Of a stretch of 18,744 nucleotides of DNA, positions 1,465-17,479 are shown one piece after another. The stretch comes from a virus (lineage: Duplodnaviria > Heunggongvirae > Uroviricota > Caudoviricetes), in IMG/VR virus record IMGVR_UViG_2636415906_000001; one strand, 5' to 3'. A model generated the notes under the pieces. It was not told the origin of the DNA and did no database searches. It worked only from the letters and a program-made list of their open reading frames with translations. Position 1 is the stretch's first letter; each line of letters opens with the position of its first letter. A program made the translations under genes and the position numbers.

Positions 1465-1752
1465 TTACTGTCTCTGGCAATCTTTATCGCGATAACGCCT
1501 GAAGTACCCTCTCGCTTCCTCATCCATACCAAGAGCCGAATGAGTTCGCTTAACTGCCTGTCTTAAATCTCCGAATCTGTCTGTAGTTGCTGGTGGGCGT
1601 GCCGCCTTACGGATACATTCAGAGCGCCTGTTTGCTGCATGTTCACGTTCTTTATCGCCATTTGCCAGCATCATGACTTCTGCCCATCGTGCGGCAGCTC
1701 TCCGGTATAGCCCTTTTGACTCCAGCTCTTCAGCTTTCCTGTCCCTTATCAT
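1465..1752 (-). CDS. PerC-family transcriptional activator-like protein (95 aa)
   Basis: The motif AEELESKGLYRRAAARWAEVM resembles the conserved PerC-family core (AExLExxGL(W/Y)RRAAxRW) common in P4-like and prophage islands. Basic small protein. Family assignment is from memory. Confidence 0.55.
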   Translation of the reverse strand: MIRDRKAEELESKGLYRRAAARWAEVMMLANGDKEREHAANRRSECIRKAARPPATTDRFGDLRQAVKRTHSALGMDEEARGYFRRYRDKDCQRQ

Positions 1753-2468: not shown

Positions 2469-3431
2469 TTATTCAATATCAAATAAATGCCTTGGGAAAC
2501 CGTTATTATCAGGTAATCCCATGGCTGTCAGGTTACATCCTGGTAAGTTAGGCTTGTTATCTACAAGGTTGGCAACTTTTTTTATCCAGTCAGATCCCGG
2601 TCCAATTTTTTTCACTAAAAACCATAACACAGCGATCATTCCGTACATTCTTTCGTACGCATCATCATTCATATTTAATTGCTCAAAGTACGGCTCATTT
2701 GGCAAAGGCATTAATCTTGGTTCGTTGACCTTGTTCCAGATGCGTGAATGGTGAGCGCACCGATTCCTTAGCACATTCATTGCGCTAAGCCAGTTTTGGA
2801 AGATAGCTCCATTGCCTGCCGCTATCCCTAGCCTAGATAGTATCCTGTTGCGATAGCTGTCTTTTAGCATCGCATAATACTTTGACATTAAGCCGAAGTC
2901 CCATACTTCAATAACCACCCAGAAAGGAAGACCTTCGTACTTGTTTTCATGCCATTTGATAAAGTCTTCGCGACTTTTAGCAATCTCGGCATTATGTTTA
3001 TTTATCCATTCTTCTCTGGCGCTTGGGCGACCATGGGAACGTGGTCTAAAGTGTTTTGGATTTATTAGCGAGTCATCAAGATATGCTAAAGGAGATATCT
3101 TACCAAGCTCATGAGCAATAACTGACCGAACATAAACCTCAATGCGTTCTAACGCATTCATCATCTGCAAACGCAGATTTTTATCGAATAAATAGAGGTC
3201 ATATACTGCGCGAAAATTAGTACCTGGACGAACCTGATCGAGTCTGGTTCTAATATTGTCTGTTGTTATATGGGGGATTCGGCAGGGGTACCAAAAGCCT
3301 GATAATCGGTAGTAGCCTACTTGTGAGATTTTCTTGATAGCATGTTCGCGATCTGGCACATCCATACCCCGAGACAGCAATAAATCGACAAGTTCATCAT
3401 ATTCTTTATGAACCTTAACCGGAACAGCCAT
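2469..3431 (-). CDS. Abortive-infection protein, Abi_2 family (AbiD/AbiF/AbiD1-like), 320 aa
   Basis: Abi_2 hallmarks as I recall them: N-terminal EYDELVDLLLSRGM...GYYRLSGFW and the central motif LRNRCAHHSRIWN. The gene is visibly AT-rich compared with the core operon. Confidence 0.85.
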   Translation of the reverse strand: MAVPVKVHKEYDELVDLLLSRGMDVPDREHAIKKISQVGYYRLSGFWYPCRIPHITTDNIRTRLDQVRPGTNFRAVYDLYLFDKNLRLQMMNALERIEVYVRSVIAHELGKISPLAYLDDSLINPKHFRPRSHGRPSAREEWINKHNAEIAKSREDFIKWHENKYEGLPFWVVIEVWDFGLMSKYYAMLKDSYRNRILSRLGIAAGNGAIFQNWLSAMNVLRNRCAHHSRIWNKVNEPRLMPLPNEPYFEQLNMNDDAYERMYGMIAVLWFLVKKIGPGSDWIKKVANLVDNKPNLPGCNLTAMGLPDNNGFPRHLFDIE

Positions 3432-3810: not shown

Positions 3811-4112
3811 CGCGCGCGTACTTGTCGCAAAATATCAGGCAAAGGCCAGATTCAGAACGTCGTGATAACCACCAGCACAACATGAGATGTCATGTAACAC
3901 GATTTATCACATCAGATACATGTGATTGGTGTACCCGCATAAAACATCGTCATAGCGCGTCCTGTGCGCATATACGCCGATAATCAACACATCACCACCA
4001 CTCTGTCTCGTGTAGAGAACAGTTTCATGGTATCCCCCGCCATCGTGTGCGTACTGGTCGGACGTAGTTGCAAAATTTTTTGCAACTGATACCCCTCGCG
4101 CGCGTACTTGTC
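3811..4112. repeat. Perfect 16-bp direct repeat cgcgcgcgtacttgtc at 3811-3826 and 4097-4112
   Basis: Read directly. The copies flank about 270 bp of non-coding DNA in the gap between the Abi gene and the membrane-protein gene. An inverted aatttcga/tcgaaatt pair lies adjacent to the copies. Confidence 0.7.
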
Positions 4113-4305
4113 TCGAAATTGGTGTTTTGCTGTGGCAGTGATATCAGAAAAATCTTCCTGTTTCACATAAAGCGGATATGCGCGTACTGTAACGGCCCCA
4201 TCAACTGGGAGCGGATTTGAAATCCCGACCCAAGCTATGTACCAAATGCCATGTCTTGGATATATGATGATTGCCATTCTAAACAAAGCTAAAGGGAGGG
4301 TTGGT

Positions 4306-4662
4306 GTGAGGGGGCAGGCAGTTATAATTATTTTGTTGGGTTTAATTGTCGCAAAGTTATACCCGACTTTATCGATGGTGTTTTTTGCCATTATTGGCGC
4401 AGCCATCTTTACTTATATCATTAAACATACCGCCTTGTGGTTCTATAAAATTGATATAGTTCAGAAGTTTGTACGTCCTGTGTCAATGTTATTACTAGCA
4501 TTAATACCAATTGGTGTTGCTTATGTAATTGATGTTTTTTACCCTTCGGACACTGAAAGGTGGTTGATAGTTTTGTATTGTTATATTGGTGTAGCTCTCT
4601 TTTGTGGATTTCATTGGTGTTTCGAAAAGATCAATGACTCTATTTCAAAGAATAAAGATTGA
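4306..4662 (+). CDS. Small integral membrane protein (about 118 aa, 3-4 predicted TM helices), GTG start
   Basis: Strong RBS AGGGAGG 5 nt upstream of GTG 4306. Hydrophobic stretches (IIILLGLIVAKL, FFAIIGAAIFTYII, LLLALIPIGVAYVIDVF, LIVLYCYIGVALFCGF). AT-rich. Ends 20 bp from the convergent 705-aa gene. Confidence 0.45.
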   Translation: MRGQAVIIILLGLIVAKLYPTLSMVFFAIIGAAIFTYIIKHTALWFYKIDIVQKFVRPVSMLLLALIPIGVAYVIDVFYPSDTERWLIVLYCYIGVALFCGFHWCFEKINDSISKNKD

Positions 4663-4681: not shown

Positions 4682-6799
4682 CTAGTCATTATCTGGATCA
4701 TTAGATAGCCAAGTAATGATGCCCAGTCTGGCGATGGTCCGTTTTTCCTGTTCAGGAAGAGAGTTAAAAAAACTCTTCCATTGAGGGGAGCGCCTGATAC
4801 GTGAATCAACAATGTGCCCAGGCGCTTTTCCGTGTAGATTTTTTACTGCGCTCTGGAAGGCTGGCGAGGCAATTAATTTATCCGCAGCATCAGCCGCCCC
4901 TGCTCCACCAGCTAATCGAGCTTTACTCGCCAATCTTGCTCCAATATCAGCCCCAGCAATGGCTCCAAGCGATCCAAAATGAGCGCCTACCATCGTGCCT
5001 ATTTTTTGAATGTGTTTTGCTGCTAGTTCGTATGGAGCTGTTACCCGATTAAATCTGTTTACAAACTCATTCAGCTTACCAGTAGATATTTCATGCGCTT
5101 TAGCATTTTTTATTGCTCTGGCAACTTTGTATACATCATATAGTCCGCTCATTGTTTCTTTTGGCAAATGTTCAGCCAAAGTCTTTAGCTGTCCACTGTG
5201 TTGCAAGTTTTGCCACCAATCTGCAAAGCCAGATGGATTAAAGTCGGCCCCACGCTTCCCAGAGGAAAGCATATCTCTTAATGCTGTTCCTACTAGCTCC
5301 CTTCGCAATGTTCTTGATGGAGTATTTTGCATAATCTCACGAAACCCTCTCGCATCACCTTTTGCCATAGATTGAAGAGAATTCGTTACTTTATACGCTA
5401 TATCCCCATTAAGTGTTTTCCCGCGAAGATTTACCATTTGCCTTTCTAAGTTTTTTCTCATAGCTACAAGGCGTTGTGCGACTTCGAAATCTCGCAAGTA
5501 TCCAGTATTGGATAAGACAGATTTTTGGTCTTCAGCTAAAGCTCCATATAGTCTTGATAGCGCTTCTTTATCAGCATCTTTGTATGGCCCCTGCTTTTTA
5601 TTTAGGGCATCACCAACTAAACGCCTTTGCCTGTTTAAATTTGCATACGTTAGGATGCTATCTGGGCCGGGGTTTATTGCTGTAAAAACTCGCTTTTCTA
5701 TTGGGTCAAGATTATCCCACCCTCCTAAATCATCAGCGATTTTTTCCAGCATAGTGCTTGTGTTATTTGCTTCGACTTTTGTTCTTGGTGATAGAGCGGA
5801 ATCAACACGTTTATATAACTGATCACTACGGTTTTTTAGTGCTTCCATTCTACTATTTATCTGATAAATATATTTTTCGCTCATAGCTAACGCATCTGGC
5901 GCACCAGCAACATCATCGATTATCTTGCCAGCACTAGAGGCTAATTCGCTTATTGCTTTATCTTCTTGAGCTTTTAACGCTGATCCTGTCCGTGACTTTA
6001 GGGCTTGCTCTACAGCTTGGTATTGCTCATTTCCTGATAAATGAGAAGGAAGAACTGAATCAACATGAAGCCTATTTGCAGCCTCAACAATTTCTTTCTG
6101 AGGTTTTAGATCTAGCCCTTCAAGCGAAGAGGCAAGATTTGGGTTGCCTTGTGCAGATAACTTACGAATTTTCTCTTCGGCAGGAGTAATCCCCTCAATA
6201 TCTGGAATCGAAGAAACATTCTTCTTGGTTAATTTCCCAGCTATTTTATTAATTGCAGGGCCAGCAAGTTCGGCTACAGGGCCAGCCACAGCGCCAATAG
6301 CAGCGCCGGAAGCAACATCGCTATTTGTTCCATTGGCTACAATAGCCCCTTCTCCAGCACCAAGCCCTGCGGCGGCAGCCAGTCTTGCCGCCCCTTTGGG
6401 AACCTGAGAAATAATCCCACCACCACTAACAAATGGCGCTGCTTGTCCAACGAACTCACCAACATCTTGTGCGGTTGATGGTTTTGCCGCTAACTTCTGC
6501 TGTAGAGACTGAATTGCGGCTTGCTCTTCTGGTGTCATATCCTGAAACAGGCCAACACCTTTACCAACATCCATCAATCCACTGAGAACGCCATACATAA
6601 AACGGTCGAAACCGTTAGCATTATTAACAACATTTTCCTGTCTGGAATTTTCCTCTGGTGAAACCAAAGGTGATTGCTGCTGTTCTGGTTGGGCATCAAG
6701 CACAAAACCATCAGGAAGCTGTGAACTATCAGGAAACTGTGAGTTATCAGGTTGTTCATCGAGCACAAAACCTTCCGGTAAGATTACATTTGCTGCCAT
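4682..6799 (-). CDS. Large hypothetical protein (705 aa): acidic repeat N-terminus, Gly/Ala-rich segment, coiled-coil-like middle; no recognisable enzymatic motif
   Basis: Long uninterrupted ORF with ATG start at 6797-6799, overlapping the upstream 451-aa gene by 16 nt (translational coupling). N-terminus LPEGFVLDEQPDNSQFPDSSQLPDGFVLDAQPEQQQ; AAAAGLGAGEGAIVANG...GAVAGPVAELAGP tract. No signal peptide or Walker motif seen. Confidence 0.8.
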   Translation of the reverse strand: MAANVILPEGFVLDEQPDNSQFPDSSQLPDGFVLDAQPEQQQSPLVSPEENSRQENVVNNANGFDRFMYGVLSGLMDVGKGVGLFQDMTPEEQAAIQSLQQKLAAKPSTAQDVGEFVGQAAPFVSGGGIISQVPKGAARLAAAAGLGAGEGAIVANGTNSDVASGAAIGAVAGPVAELAGPAINKIAGKLTKKNVSSIPDIEGITPAEEKIRKLSAQGNPNLASSLEGLDLKPQKEIVEAANRLHVDSVLPSHLSGNEQYQAVEQALKSRTGSALKAQEDKAISELASSAGKIIDDVAGAPDALAMSEKYIYQINSRMEALKNRSDQLYKRVDSALSPRTKVEANNTSTMLEKIADDLGGWDNLDPIEKRVFTAINPGPDSILTYANLNRQRRLVGDALNKKQGPYKDADKEALSRLYGALAEDQKSVLSNTGYLRDFEVAQRLVAMRKNLERQMVNLRGKTLNGDIAYKVTNSLQSMAKGDARGFREIMQNTPSRTLRRELVGTALRDMLSSGKRGADFNPSGFADWWQNLQHSGQLKTLAEHLPKETMSGLYDVYKVARAIKNAKAHEISTGKLNEFVNRFNRVTAPYELAAKHIQKIGTMVGAHFGSLGAIAGADIGARLASKARLAGGAGAADAADKLIASPAFQSAVKNLHGKAPGHIVDSRIRRSPQWKSFFNSLPEQEKRTIARLGIITWLSNDPDND

Positions 6800-8127
6800 T
6801 TTCCGTTCCTGTAAATGATTTTCTGACCAGTTTTAGGGTTGGTTGCCGTTGCGCCTTCTGATATTCCTCCGGTTGCCGCTTTTGCCTGTCCAGTGCCAGC
6901 CTGTGATGTAGGCTGCCCGGAAACATCGTCAAATAGCTTCGCTTTCCTTCTTTCAAGGCTTTTTCTTAGCCCCTGAGGAATAGTTTCTCCATATGTATCG
7001 AGATACTCGTCAACCTGCTGGTTAAACTGCTGCCCCATAGCATTGGCGTTGATTTTTGCGGCGTTAACAATGTTATCCTTTGCCTCCTGCGACAGGCCGT
7101 TTCCAGCATTAAGCTGGTCTATGTATCCTTTGATTTGTCCCCATATGCCATCAGACCGCATTACCTGAACCTGTTCGCCTTCACGAACGACTGACTGCGG
7201 GTCAAGAGATTTCATGTAGTTGAAGATAATCCCAAGTTGGGCAGCGCCAGTATTTACCTTGCTAAGGGCTTGCAGAGAGTTTGCCGCCGCTCTGACAGAG
7301 TTATAATTTTTGCCAAAATTGGTAATGTCAGAATTTAATCCCTTAATTAAGTCTGCTGACGGCTTACCTTTTTGCCCCAGCTCCATTAGCTTCAATCCCA
7401 TCTCATCTGAGTGAATTTGTGCTCGCTGAGCCCTGTCTAGTTGAGCGTTCTGGATATTTGCCCATCCTCTCGCGTTCTCCATGTCAGCCTGACGCATACT
7501 TTCATCCAGTCGCCCTTGCTCAAGTCGACGACCTTCCATTTGATCTTTGATATCGAAATACTTCTCATGACCGAGAGAAAACAGCGCCAGATTACCTGCG
7601 AAATGCTGGAAGCCCTGCGGGTCATTAACCTGCATTTCAGCAATAGTTTCTGGAGGGATACCTAAACGACGCATCTCCTGCTCATTATCCATCATGAACC
7701 TGCCAAATGCGCCCTGACCAAGCGATGAGGCTACCTGTGCTTTGAGCGCCAGATTGCCATAATCATCCCTTTGAGCATCATCGACATAACTCATCCCTTT
7801 ACGGACTTCCTCAAACTCTTCTGGGAATGCTGTAATAAGATTACGCATCTGCTCCCTGTCACCGGACGCATAAGCATCTGCATAACCTTTCTGGAATGCC
7901 GCTTTACGCTCCTGCTGTTGCTGCTGCTTATAAATATCAGCAACTCCAGCCAGACCACGAAGACCTGTCAGAGCAACGTTATTTGCACCTGATCGAGCCA
8001 GTTCATTGTTTTCGCGGATCAGACCAAGCGTTGCGTTAATGTCGCTTGCCTTTGGCGCATTCTCATTTTGCGTACCGATGCCAGCCAGAAAACCACCAGA
8101 ATTAATACCCTGTTGCCACGTAGCCAT
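6784..8127 (-). CDS. Hypothetical coiled-coil, Gln-rich protein (about 447 aa from ATG 8127; ORF track extends to GTG 8139)
   Basis: Long ORF; the ATG at 8125-8127 overlaps the stop of the upstream 57-aa ORF. QQQQQ run and low-complexity A/Q/N/G-rich sequence. No enzymatic motif recognised. Confidence 0.8.
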   Translation of the reverse strand: MATWQQGINSGGFLAGIGTQNENAPKASDINATLGLIRENNELARSGANNVALTGLRGLAGVADIYKQQQQQERKAAFQKGYADAYASGDREQMRNLITAFPEEFEEVRKGMSYVDDAQRDDYGNLALKAQVASSLGQGAFGRFMMDNEQEMRRLGIPPETIAEMQVNDPQGFQHFAGNLALFSLGHEKYFDIKDQMEGRRLEQGRLDESMRQADMENARGWANIQNAQLDRAQRAQIHSDEMGLKLMELGQKGKPSADLIKGLNSDITNFGKNYNSVRAAANSLQALSKVNTGAAQLGIIFNYMKSLDPQSVVREGEQVQVMRSDGIWGQIKGYIDQLNAGNGLSQEAKDNIVNAAKINANAMGQQFNQQVDEYLDTYGETIPQGLRKSLERRKAKLFDDVSGQPTSQAGTGQAKAATGGISEGATATNPKTGQKIIYRNGKWQQM

Positions 8128-8131
8128 AAAT

Positions 8132-8305
8132 TTACCCACGTCCAGTTAAAGTGTAAGCCAGCGCCTTATCCATTAATCCCCGAGCAATTTCGTGGATCGT
8201 TGGCGCAACTCCTACCTCTGATTTTTTACGCTGCTCCTCCTGAATTTTCTTTATCGCTTCCATTTGCTTCTCACTTATCAATACTGGCTTTACTGAAATA
8301 GCCAT
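8132..8305 (-). CDS. Small protein (57 aa, MAISVKPVLISEKQMEAIKKIQEEQRKKSEVGVAPTIHEIARGLMDKALAYTLTGRG), first gene of the operon; possibly RHH-like
   Basis: Below the ORF-track length cutoff; translated by hand. Strong RBS AAGGGGG 4-5 nt upstream of ATG 8303-8305. The stop overlaps the start of the 451-aa gene. Confidence 0.5.
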   Translation of the reverse strand: MAISVKPVLISEKQMEAIKKIQEEQRKKSEVGVAPTIHEIARGLMDKALAYTLTGRG

Positions 8306-8400: not shown

Positions 8401-8433
8401 AAAAAAATGCCACCGTTCAGTAGCTGGTGGCAT
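8401..8433 (-). terminator. Rho-independent terminator for leftward (minus-strand) transcription
   Basis: 8-bp stem ATGCCACC/GGTGGCAT (8407-8414 with 8426-8433), 11-nt loop, followed on the minus strand by TTTTTT (plus-strand A-run 8401-8406). It separates the satellite core operon from the cargo operon promoter. Confidence 0.65.
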
Positions 8434-8803
8434 CGTTCTGTATGTCAGGTTTTGACAGTTTTTTTATGGACTCTAAAAACTATATTTATGGAGTCGCATT
8501 ACTCTTCACGGCAGGCGCTTTCCAGTTCTGCCCTTGCTTCTGGCTCCATTGGTAATTTGATTCGCGATCAGCTATGCGGATGGTTTGCTGAACAGGCATA
8601 ACAACATCTCAGAGGCTATTTTTTGAACTACGAAAATTTCGTAGTGCTCACCTTCAAAAACGTCACGCCCTTGTACACTGGATTTTACAAAAGTCTCGTA
8701 AAACTCTTTGCTGTTCTGGGCTATGTGCCAAACCGCAGCGAATACCTCCGTCTGCCAGATGAGCAAAACATACCTTATAAAGAAAATCGCTGTTTTTGCT
8801 GTA

Positions 8804-8902
8804 CCACCTGTACCACCATGTCACAAACCCTTGTGTGGCGCGGCCTGCAGGTGGTACAGGTGGGTAAAAATGACCTCTCCCCACCTGTACAGACCTGTAC
8901 CA
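8804..8902. repeat. Cluster 1 of the GGTGGTACAGGT(GG) motif in both orientations
   Basis: Copies read at 8804-8817 (rc), 8850-8863 (fwd), 8881-8892 and 8893-8902 (rc, partial), immediately downstream of the 245-aa gene. Confidence 0.75.
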
Positions 8903-12405: not shown

Positions 12406-13008
12406 TTAGTGCGTCACTGGTGCTTCTGGGATGCCGTTTTCGTTTAGTTCGGCAATAAAGCTGTTGTGAAGATCGGCAAGCACTTCTCGCCCAAACGAAG
12501 TGAGTGTTCCCTGTTCGACATCGAACATGTTGCTGTAAAAAATGATGGCATTCTTTGTTCCGACATCAACACCATATTTCTCGATCATTGCGCCCTCAAT
12601 GTTGTTTGCCATAGCGAGGCGCTCTGCTACTGGATACAGCGGCATGGCGACGATGCCATTGGAATAAACAGAAACCACGGAATGATTGCCACTGTCATCA
12701 ATAATGCTGACGGTGCCGTTTTCCTTTCTCATTTCATTGATGAATGCTGTTGCTATCAGCCAGCGCCACATAATCACGTGATGCTGTGATGTGTAATCGA
12801 AATATCCCTGGTTGCCGCCATCGGCTATAGCGAGATGTATTGACATACCTTCATCTGGTTTATCGTCATAATCCCCGGCATCCAGACGATTTACGGCATC
12901 AATATATGAGACGGTCTCAACGCGTTCTGTCATGCCATCGTTGCTGCGGTGCATGATGTTTACGCCGTCAGGCGTTGCTTCTGCCTGGAAAGTTAAGAAA
13001 TTATTCAT
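12406..13008 (-). CDS. Hypothetical protein (about 200 aa from ATG 13008; ORF track extends to 13113)
   Basis: The ATG at 13006-13008 overlaps the upstream gene's stop by 8 nt. Located 12 nt upstream of the primase start. Confidence 0.6.
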   Translation of the reverse strand: MNNFLTFQAEATPDGVNIMHRSNDGMTERVETVSYIDAVNRLDAGDYDDKPDEGMSIHLAIADGGNQGYFDYTSQHHVIMWRWLIATAFINEMRKENGTVSIIDDSGNHSVVSVYSNGIVAMPLYPVAERLAMANNIEGAMIEKYGVDVGTKNAIIFYSNMFDVEQGTLTSFGREVLADLHNSFIAELNENGIPEAPVTH

Positions 13009-13222
13009 GTTTCGCCTCGCCTGAATGATTCTGTAACTCATATTTGCCCAACAATTCGTCTGCTTCCTGAATAGCTTCTGGTACGCCATTGAGCAGTGAC
13101 ATAACCGCGCCAATCATTAACTTGTCTCTGTTGCTGGGGCTGGCCCCTTCAAGCCAGAACCCTAAAACAGCCTGAACCTGTTCGATGCGACATTGCGCTT
13201 CAATGAGCTGGATGTTGGTCAT
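13001..13222 (-). CDS. Hypothetical small protein (73 aa)
   Basis: ORF with a 4-nt ATGA-type overlap with the upstream gene; part of the coupled operon. Confidence 0.55.
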   Translation of the reverse strand: MTNIQLIEAQCRIEQVQAVLGFWLEGASPSNRDKLMIGAVMSLLNGVPEAIQEADELLGKYELQNHSGEAKHE

Positions 13223-13482
13223 TTCGCACTCTCCGCATCGATTAAACTGATATCTATCAGGGAGGTAACTTTTTGTAGCCAGCTATTGATTACTGTCGCC
13301 TGTTCCCCTCCCACCGAGGGAATAATCTCATTCATCACATGAACCAGACCTGTGCGCGCTCTGGTAAGCCGTTCAGTCGCGCAATCTGCGGGAGTGAATG
13401 TGTCTGGATATGGCTCTTCGCGCCCCAGCAATGATTCAATTTCCAGCTCACACGGATGACGATAAATTAAGTTGATATTCAT
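13219..13482 (-). CDS. Hypothetical small protein (87 aa)
   Basis: ORF with GGGGGTG RBS 5 nt upstream of ATG; 4-nt overlaps with both neighbours. Confidence 0.55.
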   Translation of the reverse strand: MNINLIYRHPCELEIESLLGREEPYPDTFTPADCATERLTRARTGLVHVMNEIIPSVGGEQATVINSWLQKVTSLIDISLIDAESAK

Positions 13483-13673
13483 TTTTCACCCCCAAGAATT
13501 ACCAGCTCGGCACGGGCATCGTTAACCAAAGATGAGCACGCTTTAATCGCATCCACGACATCAGCAGCGTCCATTTCTTCAGCCGAAAGACTGACAGCAA
13601 CCAGGACATCCGCTGCTTGCTCGATTAATTGAAGTGCGGACGTAAGGCGAGGGGTATTAATTGAGTTATTCAT
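13479..13673 (-). CDS. Hypothetical small acidic protein (about 64 aa from ATG 13673)
   Basis: The internal ATG at 13671-13673 overlaps the stop (13666-13668) of the upstream 342-aa ORF; the ORF track's longer version would overlap that gene. Confidence 0.5.
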   Translation of the reverse strand: MNNSINTPRLTSALQLIEQAADVLVAVSLSAEEMDAADVVDAIKACSSLVNDARAELVILGGEK

Positions 13674-14694
13674 TGGTTGCCCCCGTTTTGCATGGCATTT
13701 GTCCACCTTCCAGCAGGAAATGAACGTCACGAACGGCGAGATCCAATATCGCGAGTAACGCCTTCAGCCTTTCGTCTCGTGAGGGAGAGTTGCTCACCAG
13801 AATGTCGTTAATCACTTCTGTCAGTGTGATGATCTGGCTTGTGCGTTCGAGGGGATCCATATGCACATCGTAGGTTTTAATCATGTGCCACCTCCATGCG
13901 GATACGACCAGCAAAAAAGCAGACGTGATCGCGCACCAGAGAACGGCGAGCATCGCGTTCAGACTCGGCAGCAATATGATGAATTTTGGCGGTAATTGTC
14001 GGGCAATCGCGGCGAACTGCGGCGATAATCCAGATAAATTGCGGTTTTTGGGTAGGGGTAGTAGCCAGCATGTGGCAGCCTCCTTGATTGATGGTTTATA
14101 GCCACCGCCCAAGAGACCAATCTTGCTGGCGGTGGACTGTACGGAGTTGGCCTTACTGGCAATCAAGGAAACCAGCCTACCCGAAGGTAGCCCCATACAG
14201 CCCACCATTGATAAGGTGTGCGTGTGCGCCGATACAAAAAAAGACGCTGGCGCGTCATGTATCGCCTCGATTGTCAGCGGGAGGCCAATCCCGGCACCCG
14301 TTTTATGAGGTGCCTTATAACCATAAACCGTGTTGCCGCATAACGGCAAGCTCTTTTTTATGGACTCCGAAAACTCACTATTGGAAGAACCAGAAGCACA
14401 GTACATCGCGCTCATTTCGTTAACGTCACGCGCATGGACGAAGGTTTTTGTGGAGTCACTACGCGAGAAGAGAAAGCCATCTACGACCAGAAATTCTCTG
14501 GCGCAGCCGCTGACCTTCTCAACGCTAACACCATCGACCGTAATTTCTGACATGGTTAAGGCATCCGCTCCTACCACCAGCAAATGACAAACTTTGCTTG
14601 TATCTGCTGTATTAATGCCTGACTTTGCTGTCATATTGCTGGATTTTGGCGACATACCAGCCAGTGAAAATATCTTCTTCTGGACGGTTAGCAT
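13666..14694 (-). CDS. Hypothetical protein (342 aa); Ser/Thr/Gly-rich N-terminal two-thirds, hydrophobic segment, C-terminal helical tail
   Basis: Long uninterrupted ORF with GGAGG RBS 8 nt upstream of ATG 14694. No family recognised. Composition changes along its length, so a sequencing frameshift or fused domains cannot be excluded. Confidence 0.5.
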
Positions 14695-14870
14695 TTGTTA
14701 ACCTCCGCGAACTCCTTCATGAAACGTGCCAGCGGTTGTACGCATGGCGATTGATACCCGTCGCGATAAAACGTCACTCGGTTGTGAGACACGCTTTCGA
14801 CAGTAACGAGTGCTCCGTGGGCACCTTTGTAGCGTTTTTGTGGTTGTGGTGTTCCTGTCGGCTTAAACAT
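14688..14870 (-). CDS. Hypothetical small protein (60 aa, [60 protein letters not shown])
   Basis: GGAGG RBS 7 nt upstream of ATG 14870. The start overlaps the AntA-like gene's 3' end by 8 nt and the stop overlaps the next gene's start. Confidence 0.45.
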   Translation of the reverse strand: MFKPTGTPQPQKRYKGAHGALVTVESVSHNRVTFYRDGYQSPCVQPLARFMKEFAEVNKC

Positions 14871-15696
14871 GGACCGCCTCCAGACGCTTGGCGAGCCAGC
14901 GTTGCGACAGGCGGGTGAGTTCTCCTTTGCGCTGCCCATATTCCATGCCCATATCAATTAACGTGATATTGGTGCTTTCGAGATATGAGAGGTGCTCAAG
15001 CTGTTCTGCGTTCATATGGTCGCGAGGTTCGCCAGAATAGCCATTTATCCGCGCCCACTGCTTAGCAGTTAGCCCACCAAGAACGATACGAGAAATCATA
15101 TTGCTCTCGTTTGTGTAGTGGTGTTGCTGCGTCGTTTTCCCCTGCTCGGCACGGGCCATGTTCAGCGCATCGCACATTGGCTTAAAGTTGTTTGCGGCAC
15201 TGATACGGGCTTTTAGCTGGCGACGATAGCGGGCGGCGATTTCAGGCACGGTACGCTGTAATTCTTCCTCGCACTGGATGAAATAACGACGGATAGCGCG
15301 ACCCTGATCATTGCGTTCGATCATTGCCAGTTCTTTCGCCATTCCGACACTTAACAGATAGTCTTTGCCGGGTCTGCCAGAGTGCTTAATCTTGCTGTAA
15401 GCCGCGCCATTCGGGCTTTTCCCCAAATTTGGGGAAATTGTTTTATGGACTGAGTAATCGTGCCCAATGGTGAAGTCATATTCAGAGATGCGATCAGTGA
15501 TCCATGTAGAGAAGTCTTTTCCCACGCCCAACGCTTTGTGTAACGCTTTTGCGCTAACAATATTGGTTTCACGCCCACCTATATGACCAGAAATAACCGG
15601 GACAATTGCGGCAAATTCATTACCGTTAATTGTGCCCAGAGAGGCGTTCAGATGAGGGGCGGCCTCAGAAATTAATCTGCTTTTTTCGATGTTCAT
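14863..15696 (-). CDS. Phage antirepressor-like protein, AntA/AntB (Rha-like) N-terminal domain with a C-terminal extension (277 aa)
   Basis: SAKALHKALGVGKDFSTWITDRISEYDFTIGHDY...GRPGKDYLLSVGMAKELAMIERNDQGRAIRRYFIQCEEEL follows the AntA-domain pattern as I recall it. GGAG RBS 9 nt upstream of ATG. Confidence 0.7.
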   Translation of the reverse strand: MNIEKSRLISEAAPHLNASLGTINGNEFAAIVPVISGHIGGRETNIVSAKALHKALGVGKDFSTWITDRISEYDFTIGHDYSVHKTISPNLGKSPNGAAYSKIKHSGRPGKDYLLSVGMAKELAMIERNDQGRAIRRYFIQCEEELQRTVPEIAARYRRQLKARISAANNFKPMCDALNMARAEQGKTTQQHHYTNESNMISRIVLGGLTAKQWARINGYSGEPRDHMNAEQLEHLSYLESTNITLIDMGMEYGQRKGELTRLSQRWLAKRLEAVHV

Positions 15697-15708
15697 TTTC
15701 AGTCTCCG

Positions 15709-16140
15709 TTAGGCGGCGTTAAACGCGTCCGGGTAGAGTTTCAGAATGTCGGCAATTTCCTGCTGAGAAAGTCCGTTGTGATCATTTATGTTCGCAAGAT
15801 GGTTAACATGAGTGATCACTTTCAGAACATCACCACGGCAGGAGAAACGGTAGCGAAGGTGTGTTCCGATACCATCAGGATTCTTTTCGTCGATACGCTC
15901 CAGAGTGATTCCAAGCTGGCGTTCTAACTCTGTTGCATAGTTACGACCAGAAGACAGACGGCAGTAGCGAAGAATGTCATTTTCTGTCCATCCCTCTATA
16001 CCAGTACGCAGCATATAGACTCGGGCACGATGCTTTTTCGGTGTGCGCTTTGGTGCTTGAAGGGATTTTGTAAGGGGCGTAATATCAGATACGCGAATAT
16101 CTGAATTAGCCGCCTGTAATGGGCGGTTTTTCTTTTCCAT
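15709..16140 (-). CDS. Hypothetical basic protein (143 aa)
   Basis: The ORF start overlaps the alpA stop (ATGA). No family recognised. Confidence 0.6.
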   Translation of the reverse strand: MEKKNRPLQAANSDIRVSDITPLTKSLQAPKRTPKKHRARVYMLRTGIEGWTENDILRYCRLSSGRNYATELERQLGITLERIDEKNPDGIGTHLRYRFSCRGDVLKVITHVNHLANINDHNGLSQQEIADILKLYPDAFNAA

Positions 16141-16358
16141 CAGGCCACCTTCCCGCGGCGTTCTGCCAGCCAGTTATTAATTTCCACCGCATCAAACGCA
16201 GTCACGTTATCTGTTAGCTTCACTGGGCGTGGAAGAGTGCCATTTTTAACCCATCTATCAATAGTAGGCAGTGAAACACCTAGCAATTCCGGCATGCGAA
16301 AGCGACGGATGTATCCAGTTGTTGGGATAGCTGATGATGCTGGCTTGTGTGCTGTCAT
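16140..16358 (-). CDS. alpA: AlpA-family prophage transcriptional regulator / excisionase-like protein (72 aa)
   Basis: IRRFRMPELLGVSLPTIDRWVKNGTLPRPVKLTDNVTAFDAVEINNWL matches the AlpA (Phage_AlpA) HTH pattern. Position between int and the primase operon is typical of P4-like and CP4-57-like elements. Confidence 0.8.
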   Translation of the reverse strand: MTAHKPASSAIPTTGYIRRFRMPELLGVSLPTIDRWVKNGTLPRPVKLTDNVTAFDAVEINNWLAERRGKVA

Positions 16359-16440
16359 ATCTCTAGTAACCTCTCTGATAGCTCATGAAGTTACTTAAAG
16401 TTTAGTGGTTGCCCATACAGTATTTCTATTAAGACTAGAA

Positions 16441-16492
16441 TCTATTGAAAGAAATTATAAATCTATTGAAAAAATACCGATCCACTGAAAGA
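16441..16492. repeat. Three direct repeats (tctattgaaa, tctattgaaa, ccactgaaag) at about 21-bp spacing in the AT-rich region upstream of alpA; candidate operator or arm-type sites
   Basis: Copies start at 16441, 16462 and 16482, in the 470-bp intergenic region between the 216-aa gene and alpA. Confidence 0.5.
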
Positions 16493-16828
16493 TTGCAAAT
16501 GCAGGTGGGATAATTATTTTCTTTATTTTCAATTAGTTACCAGTTTAAAAAATCATTGTTTTATCAAAGAGTTATATCTTTCATCGTCATTCATCATGTT
16601 TTTACATTTCTTTTTATCTTTTATTATTCAATTGGTTGAGTCGGTTTATAATGGCTCATGATGGCTTAAAATGGCTAATGATAGCTGGCGTATCTTTTAG
16701 AGATGGGGTGATTACAGATGAACTAAGCCGAACAGATATAGCAATAGCTAGGCGAGAATTATCTATGCTGGTGGAGATGGGTAAACAGGTAATGCCCCGC
16801 CATTGCTTTGGAGGGGCGTGAAAAGTGA

Positions 16829-17479
16829 TTAGTCGAGATCGTGGACAGCTAATAAAGCCCGTGAGATTTTTTCTAGGAATGTGGCTTTTGCTATTCCTTT
16901 ATGGGATATCCCTTCATCCTTGATTAAGGTTTCTATGTCACGGTATATAGCTGTGCGATTAGGTTTCCCATTTTGGATGTAGGAAGATGAGCCTGATTTT
17001 TTTATCAGCAGATGTACTATCAACCCCATCATTTTCATTGTCCCGTTTTCCTCATCCTGCTTTCTATGCTGCCCACGTCCGCTGCGGTTGGTTTCTTTGA
17101 TGTAGTTTACTAACTGGAGTCCTCCAAGGTTTCGGGCTTTTTCTTCCCAGCCCTTGGTGCCACGCAAATCATCAATCGCTTCTGATATTTTCTGAACAAT
17201 TATTTCTGGTGTATTTGTGTCAATAAATGGGTAAGAAGCTAAGAAAATATCAAGGGCATGGCAAGGCTCATCTTTACTAGTTTTTTCACCTCTGTACACC
17301 TTGATAGCTCTGGCAAGATGAGTTCTGACAAAATCGACATATTCGAAATTTTCCTCAGGCACATCGCTAATGCGCATAGATGGGTTTAGGCCAGCCAAGG
17401 CCACAGCCATTTCATGAGGGGTAATCGATACAGATGAACAAAGCCGTTCGATTGGCGATTTTCTCAAGATGTTGTTCAC
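16829..17479 (-). CDS. Hypothetical protein (216 aa) translationally coupled to the integrase; GTG start
   Basis: GTG at 17479 overlaps the int stop (GTGA) with GGAGG 5-6 nt upstream. AT-rich relative to int. No family recognised. Confidence 0.65.
   Translation of the reverse strand: MNNILRKSPIERLCSSVSITPHEMAVALAGLNPSMRISDVPEENFEYVDFVRTHLARAIKVYRGEKTSKDEPCHALDIFLASYPFIDTNTPEIIVQKISEAIDDLRGTKGWEEKARNLGGLQLVNYIKETNRSGRGQHRKQDEENGTMKMMGLIVHLLIKKSGSSSYIQNGKPNRTAIYRDIETLIKDEGISHKGIAKATFLEKISRALLAVHDLD

Follow-up and report, generated by a model that had tools for sequence, protein, structure and literature searches.

The virus record IMGVR_UViG_2636415906_000001 (Duplodnaviria; Heunggongvirae; Uroviricota; Caudoviricetes), an 18,744-nucleotide (nt) stretch of DNA referred to here as the window, spans dinD (1-615) to a tyrosine integrase gene and contains an island whose core is a string of minus-strand genes running from alpA to a primase gene. 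Two questions are raised by this locus: what the tight joining of these genes achieves, and how an element without the sid, delta and psu genes of satellite P4 exploits a helper phage. The reading that we hold to be probable is that the string represents the core ('Bro plus replication') of a Gram-negative phage-inducible chromosomal island (PICI) of the EcCIMP1 family, inserted at yicC-dinD, in which control follows the logic of the P4 left operon and helper exploitation would proceed through mimics of phage packaging (pac) sites. EcCIMP1, the PICI of E. coli MP1, has been mobilised experimentally with Kapi1, a P22-like phage, as helper (Pick, Stadel & Raivio 2025, PMC11773190).

An earlier note on this DNA, made from the sequence alone, described nine consecutive minus-strand open reading frames (ORFs) from alpA to orf200, followed by the primase gene, as one long translationally coupled operon. 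The string itself is as described, every junction being either a 1-8-nt overlap or a 12-nt gap (coordinates in Table 1). Reading downstream, alpA overlaps orf143 by 1 nt and a 12-nt gap separates orf143 from the gene for an AntA-like protein; overlaps of 8 nt (AntA-like gene and DUF4222 gene), 7 nt (DUF4222 gene and ORF342), 8 nt (ORF342 and orf64), 4 nt (orf64 and orf87), 4 nt (orf87 and orf73) and 8 nt (orf73 and orf200) follow, and a second 12-nt gap leads to the primase gene. Inspection of the junctions and starts also confirmed the GGAGG-type ribosome-binding sites, with Shine-Dalgarno sequences of the type GGAG, GGAGG or GGGGG placed 5-10 nt before most starts of the string. The overlap pattern is conserved and not peculiar to this copy, because the same pattern appears in the annotation by the Prokaryotic Genome Annotation Pipeline (PGAP) of two diverged islands, L072 and L073, from the same chromosomal site. 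While the coupling is present, an intrinsic terminator lies within ORF342, and the description as a single operon is therefore valid only on condition that this terminator is read through.

ORF342, the largest 'gene' of the string, is not the plain gene that it was first taken for, as it holds two Rfam RNAs, the terminator, a nested icd-like ORF and, on the opposite strand, a fragment of a small-terminase gene (terS) with a pac-like site. The two RNAs, an IsrK/seqA-like RNA and a C4/CI-type antisense immunity RNA, are both full-length matches that exceed the Rfam gathering thresholds; they stand in tandem on the strand of ORF342 and do so also in EcCIMP1, L006, L007, L008, L072 and L073; the upstream part is matched by RF03163 ('a1, b1 targets of C4') in L008 and P4. 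The DNA under the Pfam Phage_ASH match of ORF342, nt 14325-14038, is that of the isrK and C4 RNAs and the stretch after them.

Covariation was followed in an alignment of seven alleles (the window, EcCIMP1, L072, L073, Shimwellia, Acerihabitans and an Orbaceae genome). The loop of C4 hairpin 2 (b2) and the 3' single-stranded stretch (a2) vary among these alleles, and each change in b2 or a2 is mirrored downstream at a'/b' and upstream at a1/b1 of the IsrK-like element. Duplex energies from RNAduplex were adopted because a simple in-register count of pairs between C4 and its targets gave no discrimination. The pairing of b2 with b' gave -16.5 kcal/mol for cognate versus -7.8 kcal/mol for non-cognate combinations, the cognate being best in 7/7 alleles (the duplex of the window itself reaches -17.3 kcal/mol), and the same order held for a2 with a' (-10.7 versus -4.4 kcal/mol; 7/7), b2 with b1 (-11.7 versus -6.5 kcal/mol; 7/7) and a2 with a1 (-15.8 versus -8.5 kcal/mol; 5/7). 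This covariation across seven alleles supports the predicted pairing of the C4-like RNA loop with the ribosome-binding site of icd. Two hallmarks of C4/CI immunity are present at the locus: a C4-family RNA with an upstream a1b1/seqA copy (79 and 65 bits), and co-varying a'b'/seqC targets over the ribosome-binding site of the next ORF in all seven alleles. The RNA architecture is that of P1/P7 immI and of P4 immunity, the latter being summarised in PMC4825925. With immI (c4-icd-ant) the island shares the a1b1, c4(a2b2) and a'b' layout, the position of b' over the icd ribosome-binding site and the allele-specific pairing.

As for the coding frames of ORF342, one frame, in the same register, is free of stops over the RNA module in 7/7 alleles examined for it (P4 among them), and the other two frames contain 1-6 stops; an open frame of any kind over the module occurred in only 6-12% of shuffles, and the frame survives indels, such as the additional 39 nt of EcCIMP1. 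In L072, L073, L007 and L008 the open frame enters icd, giving a nested Eta/Kil arrangement, whereas in the window and EcCIMP1 a 1-nt difference places it in a frame other than that of icd, in which it remains open through icd and joins orf72. Amino-acid conservation in ORF342 is confined to stretches in which the RNA is itself conserved, and island variants share no homology in the N-terminal third. A spurious ORF over RNA genes was considered and dropped, since the frame is open in every allele (with the 39-nt insertion and in P4) and P4 Eta is published; the PGAP 'pseudogene' label of the EcCIMP1 Ash ORF was likewise set aside as a sign of disruption, as the ORF is intact there.

By analogy with known systems, we infer that ORF342 is a read-through ORF for which being translated is more important than the protein that results. 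In Gifsy-1, where IsrK is a structural homolog of seqA, orf45 overlaps a C4-like RNA, is conserved in nucleotides and not in amino acids, and must be translated for the downstream gene to be expressed (PMC4825925). In P4, Kil is a shortened form of Eta, the full-length protein being translated only from the upstream late promoter, and coupled translation constitutes an immunity bypass (PMC10111431). The island resembles the Gifsy-1 isrK-orf45-anrP region in the need for translation of an RNA-overlapping ORF (documented there: PMC4825925), and differs from both it and immI in that the downstream cargo is a primase operon and not an antirepressor, the AntA-like gene being upstream of the RNA module. 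It appears rather unlikely that ORF342 is instead a genuine Ash/Bro-network protein, for example a helper anti-repressor, whose amino acids matter and in whose gene the RNAs are merely embedded. Such a protein would agree with the frame being open in all alleles, with the good Shine-Dalgarno sequence and 7-nt overlap with the DUF4222 gene, with the classing of Phage_ASH among Bro-network domains (Mageeney et al., PMC10111431) and with a slight synonymous surplus in the 5' part of ORF342, where changes are few (6 synonymous, 6 non-synonymous), but the confinement of residue conservation to the conserved RNA, the radical replacements produced by the loop alleles, the non-homologous N-terminal third, the conservation of nucleotides and not amino acids in the equivalent Gifsy-1 orf45 (PMC4825925) and the variable frame relation of ORF342 to icd all speak against it.

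The window shares the backbone of P4 (AlpA homolog, seqA, CI, Eta/Kil and primase), and the coupling is therefore best read as the published immunity-bypass device of P4, in which the overlaps would be the mechanism that lets transcripts from the alpA promoter escape RNA immunity. By analogy with P4 and P1, transcripts begun just upstream of the IsrK-like element during quiescence would end at the terminator or be processed to a stable C4/CI-like RNA. The single-stranded a2 and b2 of this RNA would bind a' and b', which cover the site of ribosome binding for the icd/kil-like ORF; neither icd nor the genes coupled to it downstream, among them the primase gene, would then be translated, and transcription would end early. 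Upon induction, the helper phage would turn on the alpA promoter and ribosomes would be passed from alpA through orf143, antA and the DUF4222 gene to the Eta-like ORF342 via the start/stop overlaps. Ribosomes translating over the terminator and a'/b' would shield the transcript from the hairpin, the antisense RNA and Rho, and the replication genes would then be expressed despite immunity. The AT-rich interval upstream of alpA is presumed to be the helper-inducible promoter region, because the corresponding alpA region of EcCIMP1 (-449 to +50) showed induction only upon induction of the helper Kapi1 (PMC11773190).

The P4 gene order makes the kinship and its limits explicit. In P4, orf88 (AlpA family, 1.7e-20) is followed by isrK and c4-a1b1 matches at 8615-8705 (seqA), a C4 match at 8420-8507 (CI RNA), epsilon (PF25738), orf151, cnr and alpha, with the Phage_ASH model falling on the ORF formerly labelled 'cI gene product', which lies over CI. 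The island has an AlpA gene, a seqA/IsrK-like RNA, a CI/C4 RNA within a Phage_ASH (Eta) ORF, a Kil/Icd-like ORF, small ORFs and an alpha-type primase. It differs from P4 in lacking sid, delta, psu, epsilon, cnr, orf151 and a P2-type cos site, in the extra orf143, AntA-like and DUF4222 genes between alpA and eta, in the offset of its Eta-like frame from icd and in the type of helper (P22-like versus P2-like). The icd-like ORF is 43% identical (tblastn) to amino acids (aa) 73-130 of P4 'cI ORF137' (L074 8168-8584), the last 58 residues of which are homologous to Icd-like proteins, and by this homology P4 Kil, a 65-aa cell-killing product, would fit as an Icd-family division inhibitor.

The absence of recognisable P4 sid, delta and psu genes was upheld; homology that would have overturned it was looked for with Pfam, PHROGs and tblastn and was not encountered. 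The Pfam models Psu and Ogr_Delta found no match among the window proteins, the same models giving 1e-88 and 6.5e-22 on the P4 proteins as a positive control, and no PHROG of the Sid, Delta or Psu type occurs among the window matches. All thirteen P4 proteins compared with the whole window by tblastn yielded three matches only (Int, 8e-19; the alpha N-terminus, 5e-41; 'cI ORF137' aa 73-130, 4e-7); Sid, Delta, Psu, Epsilon, Cnr and orf151 had no tblastn match in the window (best E of 0.6 for Sid, above 2 for Delta and above 0.1 for Psu), and the true P4 epsilon family PF25738 is absent from it.

P4-like satellites are defined by seven core markers, at most two of which may be missing (Moura de Sousa & Rocha 2021). 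The integrase is present (Pfam Phage_integrase, together with the P4 Int match), as is AlpA (PF05930), whose 6e-6 is only marginally below the 1e-5 limit of that study. The 'epsilon' marker as used there (PF10554) matches ORF342 at 3e-13, though PF10554 matches the P4 cI/eta ORF. The alpha-primase marker PF03288 found no match, Zn_Ribbon_Prim, Toprim_3 and DUF5906 matching instead, and the primase N-terminal 335 aa are homologous to P4 alpha, with 33.7% identity to aa 5-314 of alpha (E=5e-41, tblastn). Markers for Sid, Delta (PF04606) and Psu (PF07455) were not found. With three markers absent and one doubtful, only 3-4 of the seven are present and the element fails the P4-like definition. As an observation on the marker itself, PF10554 'Phage_ASH' and the PGAP 'ash family protein' are the conceptual translation of the seqA/CI (IsrK/C4) RNA locus (window 14038-14325; P4 L074 8329-8521), and on P4 the model matches the old 'cI ORF137' and not epsilon (PF25738); the epsilon marker of Moura de Sousa & Rocha 2021 therefore actually detects the immunity-RNA locus.

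The element does fit the layout of Gram-negative PICIs, which consists of four zones, Integration, Bro, Replication and Late (Mageeney et al. 2023, PMC10111431). These appear in order as int and alpA, AntA and Ash/Eta, primase and iterons, and captured P22 gp20/gp16 genes, and the tail of the island also suits the 'late-gene capture' idea of that study; C4 and isrK models match several Gram-negative PICIs (PMC10111431). Excision, replication and packaging induced by a helper, the functional trait of this group, are documented for the relative EcCIMP1, where the frequency is low (PMC11773190). The genes that characterise EcCIMP1-like elements (antirepressor, Ash family protein and primase) are all present, the antirepressor/Ash region at ~90% nt identity and the primase as a different type, and the element would therefore correspond to one of the partial 'types' of the EcCIMP1 paper. 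It is a further member of the Gram-negative PICI/EcCIMP1 group, and its RNA switch with a coupled Eta-type ORF is already published biology.

The window and EcCIMP1 are ~90% identical in nucleotides over 13600-14900, the terS/pac fragment included, and share the gene order from alpA to orf200, the same small ORFs, P22-type ejection genes after the primase and PerC cargo; the 73-aa protein of EcCIMP1 has an accession identical to that in L001, a 98.8%-identical relative of the window. Differences lie in the integration site (tRNA-Thr near proA in EcCIMP1, yicC/dinD in the window), in the EcCIMP1 primase (918 aa, of the TOPRIM+DUF927 type), which two additional small ORFs accompany, in the iterons, in the C4 specificity allele, in the four ejection/assembly genes of EcCIMP1 (gp14, gp7, gp20, gp16-SLT) versus two in the window, and in the lack of orf216 and Abi_2 in EcCIMP1. 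Segment 13870-14870 occurs in a satellite context in ~480 of 5,426 complete E. coli genomes, and hundreds of genomes have this architecture, at two integration sites; Kapi1 has no similarity to window 13600-14900, and few true relatives came out of a search of species genomes anchored on AntA. The presence of only 3-4 of the seven P4 core markers might also be read as decay, the island being a P4-like satellite that lost sid, delta and psu along with its mobility. This is very improbable, given that all ORFs are intact and coupled, that the architecture is kept across those hundreds of genomes and both sites, that tblastn detected no pseudogene remnant of sid, delta or psu and that the close relative EcCIMP1 excises and is transduced (PMC11773190).

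The earlier note left a choice between a distinct P4-related lineage and a PICI-like element with novel helper-exploitation genes among its small ORFs. Both halves hold together, through the P4 gene order and the kinship with EcCIMP1; the part that did not stand is the location, as the candidates for helper exploitation are cis-acting pac-like DNA sites and the P22-type ejection-protein genes downstream of the primase, rather than the small ORFs. The authors of the EcCIMP1 study found no terminase or capsid genes and described the packaging mechanism as unknown (PMC11773190). In P22 the pac site lies inside gene 3, with the consensus AAGATTTATCTG (PMC11226127), and is a 22-bp asymmetric site (PMC9611059). 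The island, which is without capsid-remodelling or terminase genes, would carry DNA from inside helper terS genes, where P22-like phages keep pac, at two places: a ~110-nt fragment of the P22 gp3 type within ORF342, and distal 18-mers of the Sf6/Kapi1 type beside a P22-type unit.

Compared with phage genomes by megablast, window 14431/14440-14546 (+) matches the small-terminase gene of P22, APC_JM3.2, EC.P3, SEN22 and ~110 other P22-like phages, and several P22 records have annotated 'pac site' features under the match. In the alignment, the homology between satellite and phage starts at the GAAG of the pac site and extends for ~110 nt, with a 53-nt identical stretch. The pac-like core GAAGGTTTTTGTGGAGTCACTACGCGAG agrees with P22 at 22/28 positions, where the best of 300 shuffles reached 21, and its deviations (G at position 5, T at position 9, GTCAC) are shared with the terS of the W284 prophage, GAAGGTTTTTCTGACGTCAC. 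With ~36 codons and no credible start, the fragment cannot encode TerS. It is nearly identical in EcCIMP1 and L001 despite their differing C4 alleles, is carried by eight further EcCIMP1-like loci and is held at 96-99% identity while the neighbouring C4 allele diverges. Full-length gp3-type terS prophages were found in 258 genomes, and the island occurs together with such a prophage in at least two strains (19451123 and W284).

In the variant islands the slot between DUF4222 and IsrK is filled differently. BLAST of this slot from L072, L073, L007 and L008 against phages gave no match, and the pac-like units there were found by motif scan because they are too short for BLAST. L072 and L073, which are without a BLAST-detectable terS fragment and without ejection genes, have short pac-like units at the same slot in opposite orientation: the L072 unit, GAAGATTTATTAGGGGTCGTTACGCGAG, matches at 24/28 with terS similarity reduced to ~31 nt (the pac-like 28-mer and 3 nt), and the L073 unit, GAAGATTTATTGGGGGTCACTACGCGAG, matches at 22/28 and is accompanied by two weaker tandem copies. 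In L076 (E. coli 702/18, 701-818) the terS fragment has the flank CAGAACAGGTC, which P22 and APC_JM3.2 share exactly, the window having AAGAGAAAGCC in its place; this suggests that satellites have undergone gene conversion with helper terS genes repeatedly.

The distal cluster relates to a second terminase family. The TerS of Kapi1 is of the Sf6/HK620 type, 98.6% identical in nucleotides to Sf6 gene 1 and unrelated to gp3. The 18-mer TTTCGCGACAAGTACGCG corresponds to nt 172-189 of the Kapi1/Sf6-type terS gene (codons FRDKYA). Counted at up to two mismatches, it is present in every satellite examined, with two copies each in the window, L001, L072 and L073, three in EcCIMP1 and one in Shimwellia (L007); the two copies of the window compare with 0.02 expected, and 0/200 shuffles reached two. 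The 18-mers adjoin, and are co-oriented with, P22-type units (window 4130-4157, L072 9528-9555, L073 9538-9625). The Sf6 pac site is reported to lie in the part of gene 1 that codes for the DNA-binding domain (Leavitt et al. 2013), and the 18-mer sits in that part as well.

A different kind of repeat lies directly after the replication module: iterons of TGGTACAGGTGG in the window and L001, TGTTGGTTCAAAATACCGTGT in EcCIMP1 and TATCCCTAC in L072 and L073. These clusters (window 8799-8902, L004 12275-12396, L072/L073 4583-4835) have a sequence that follows the primase type (DUF5906, DUF927 or P4-family) and are likely origins of replication. The pac-like cluster does not co-vary with primase type, unlike the primase-adjacent iterons, and is for this reason unlikely to be an origin. 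Being short, repeated and clustered like iterons, the 18-mers and the GAAGATTT units could serve in replication or regulation and not in packaging, as operators or iterons bound by a protein of the satellite (orf143, itself possibly a winged-helix protein, AlpA or the primase); this seems distinctly unlikely, however, as the units are common to islands of three primase types in which a separate iteron set co-varies with the primase, and they match internal terS sequence of two helper families far beyond chance.

From these sequence matches we infer that both pac-like sites are pac-site mimics, directed at two TerS families; they would draw the helper terminase for headful packaging, with P22-type ejection-protein genes also carried by the island. 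Several observations weigh against this or against other parts of the overall reading. Within the terS fragment, divergence is greatest in the pac-like core (16/22 versus P22), which also misses one position of the published pseudo-pac consensus (16/17; PMC11226127); 16/17 matches are expected about once per window by chance (an estimate from PMC11226127), and this match was not used as evidence. The exact satellite pac variant was found in no phage of the collections searched, and transfer of EcCIMP1 by Kapi1 is very inefficient (PMC11773190). On the side of the immunity switch, ORF342 of the window is not in frame with icd, unlike Eta with Kil in P4, and the nested-gene detail differs; in nt 14694-14326 of ORF342 the differences from L001, L004 and L006 (6 synonymous, 6 non-synonymous) are too few to point either way. 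The divergence of the core and the rarity of transfer would suit an explanation in which the terS fragment and 18-mers are non-functional scars of recombination with P22-like phages and packaging occurs by generalized or lateral transduction or through an unrecognised protein; satellites do exchange DNA with helpers, as shown by ejection genes that are 88% identical in nucleotides to those of Kapi1. We regard such scars as unlikely, while granting them real weight. The fragment starts at the pac site, is retained at 96-99% identity beside a diverging C4, lies in ~480 complete E. coli genomes, and in variant islands is pared to ~31 nt (the 28-mer and 3 nt) in the other orientation and with tandem copies; motifs of two unrelated terS families stand side by side and co-oriented in every island, and a cpxR::kan control led the EcCIMP1 authors to conclude that Kapi1 is no generalized transducer and that EcCIMP1 transfer is specific (PMC11773190).

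Copies of a helper packaging signal without a full terminase are known from cos-mimicking PICIs (EcCICFT073 with Rpp; SaPIbov5), and EcCICFT073 needs the Rpp adaptor in addition to its cos site. The candidates of the island differ in being headful pac sites that derive from the interior of terS genes, with two TerS families represented, and an Rpp-like protein was not identified in the island. The coordinates of all features are collected in Table 1.

Table 1. Features of the island core and its surroundings in the window (positions of the 18,744-nt stretch)
Feature	Coordinates	Strand	Evidence or remark
Tyrosine integrase, 422 aa	17476..18744	-	Pfam Arm-DNA-bind_3, Phage_int_M, Phage_integrase; 24.6% identity to P4 Int, E=8e-19
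orf216, fills the int-alpA interval	16829..17479	-	phrog_30524 3e-34; 4-nt overlap of its start with the int stop
AT-rich 470-nt interval upstream of alpA	16359..16828	-	GC ~0.40
alpA, AlpA-family regulator, 72 aa	16140..16358	-	Pfam Phage_AlpA 6e-6, 26.5 bits versus cut-off 21
orf143, conserved alpA partner	15709..16140	-	possible winged-helix DNA-binding protein (from model)
AntA-like (Bro-network) protein, 277 aa	14863..15696	-	Pfam AntA 2e-21; phrog_5817 anti-repressor Ant 4.5e-38
DUF4222 protein, 60 aa	14688..14870	-	Pfam DUF4222 7e-23
ORF342, Eta-like ('ash family') read-through ORF	13666..14694	-	Pfam Phage_ASH aa 124-219
P22-type terS fragment (gene 3 nt ~268-374), starting at pac site, ~110 nt	14440..14546	+	BLAST 85-87%, E to 1e-28
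pac-like 28-mer	14440-14467	+	22/28 versus P22 pac 28-mer
IsrK/seqA-like RNA (a1b1 decoy sites)	14237..14313	-	Rfam isrK 65 bits versus gathering threshold 50
Intrinsic terminator, GC hairpin and T-run, end of IsrK-like RNA	14256..14243	-	terminator scan
C4/CI-type antisense immunity RNA	14125..14212	-	Rfam C4 79.2 bits versus gathering threshold 45, full length
a' and b' target sites	14121..14113 and 14090..14079	-	b' over AGGAGG Shine-Dalgarno of icd
icd/kil-like ORF, 64 aa, nested in ORF342, other frame	13877..14071	-	NCBIfam phage_ICD_like (NF033153) 3.7e-20; phrog_1743
orf72, in frame with ORF342, own GGAGG-ATG start	13666..13884	-	no family match (PHROGs, NCBIfam, Pfam)
orf64	13479..13673	-	no significant family (Pfam, PHROGs, NCBIfam)
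orf87	13219..13482	-	no family (Pfam, PHROGs, NCBIfam)
orf73	13001..13222	-	phrog_20558, function not assigned
orf200, in slot held by cnr in P4	12406..13008	-	phrog_1515 1e-48
Primase-helicase, 783 aa	10042..12393	-	Pfam Zn_Ribbon_Prim, Toprim_3, DUF5906
Candidate replication origin, TGGTACAGGTGG-type iterons	8799..8902		repeat search
orf57, P22 gp20-like (451 aa) and gp16-like (705 aa) ejection genes	4682..8305	-	Pfam Inj_translocase 3e-73 (gp20-like); phrog_917, phrog_770
Second pac-like cluster	3811..4188	-	18-mers 3815-3832, 4101-4118 flanking weak P22-type unit 4130-4157

Besides AlpA, the AntA-like protein and the primase, which the earlier note considered the only recognisable products of the string, families were assigned to the DUF4222 protein, to ORF342 (Phage_ASH) and to the Icd-like ORF. 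The products of orf143, orf72, orf64, orf87, orf73 and orf200 had no informative family in Pfam, PHROGs or NCBIfam. A search with orf143 returned 611 homologs, those listed being 73-99% identical and from Enterobacterales; its AlphaFold2 (AF2) model, of medium confidence (predicted local distance difference test, pLDDT, of 75), has a helix-helix-helix-strand-strand core, to which Foldseek found only weak winged helix-turn-helix matches (E of at least 0.1), and a sequence search of PDB came back empty. On the strength of this model orf143 is a possible winged-helix DNA-binding protein. For orf200 there were 484 homologs, those listed being all enterobacterial and mostly named hypothetical; its candidacy as a Cnr equivalent was rejected (hhalign probability of 1% against P4 Cnr), a profile search of PDB gave nothing credible, and its AF2 model was unusable (pLDDT 48).

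The integrase gene, which adjoins yicC in relatives, is followed in L006, L009, L010, L072 and L073 by the Rfam int-alpA RNA (RF02996), located between int and alpA, with an ORF also present there in L072 and L073; in the window RF02996 had no match at E<=1, and orf216 and the 470-nt AT-rich gap take its place. After the primase gene come orf76, orf245, the candidate origin, a terminator-like hairpin, orf57, the gp20-like and gp16-like genes, the distal pac-like cluster, an Abi_2 gene and a PerC-family gene. The ejection proteins share 74.5% (gp20) and 41% (gp16) aa identity with those of Kapi1, and gp14, gp7, gp20 and gp16 are present in the EcCIMP1-like loci L077-L084. A motif, (G/A)GAGTCCATAAAAAA, is located at 14354-14368 (-), 41 nt before the start of the IsrK-like RNA, and a second time at 8460-8474 (-), where it precedes orf57 and the ejection genes by 155 nt and lies beside the perfect palindrome TGTCAGGTTTTGACA (8443-8457); related copies also occur in the L072 and L073 slots, and these copies may be a shared promoter or operator.

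In L079, a gene beside the ejection genes has a weak precomputed match to PF26849 (SIEA), and exclusion encoded by the island and linked to its specific ejection proteins is possible; the membrane ORF beside the gp16-like gene of the window and the corresponding ORFs tested had no Pfam match to SieA. The 141-aa membrane-like ORF at 4237-4662 has a weak Bax1-I match. Cargo at the dinD end comprises the Abi_2 abortive-infection gene (2469-3431; 3.6e-52) and the PerC-family regulator (1465-1752, minus strand; 3e-33), and relatives at the same site hold other cargo, including a single-stranded DNA-binding protein (SSB), an M41-like peptidase, ImmA/IrrE and insertion sequence (IS) elements. Just past the 3' end of the PerC gene, a 63-nt stretch (1351-1413) matches a section of Kapi1_032, an anti-repressor gene of Kapi1, at 86% identity (Kapi1 13227-13289).

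Whether these findings extend to the family as a whole is a matter on which we are about evenly divided: by their sequences, EcCIMP1-family PICIs may be packaged without a terminase, capsid-remodelling or adaptor gene of their own, using shuffled pac mimics from two unrelated TerS families (gp3-type and Sf6/Kapi1-type) and their own ejection proteins, which would make them polyvalent parasites of P22-like helpers. No description of the two pac-mimic sites was found in the literature searched. If the proposal is true, one pac mimic lies antisense within the Eta-like read-through ORF of the immunity switch. The proposal would explain why Kapi1 moves EcCIMP1 at all, predicts that phages with gp3-type TerS are much better helpers than Kapi1, and offers, for widespread islands, a testable answer to the packaging question left open by the EcCIMP1 paper.

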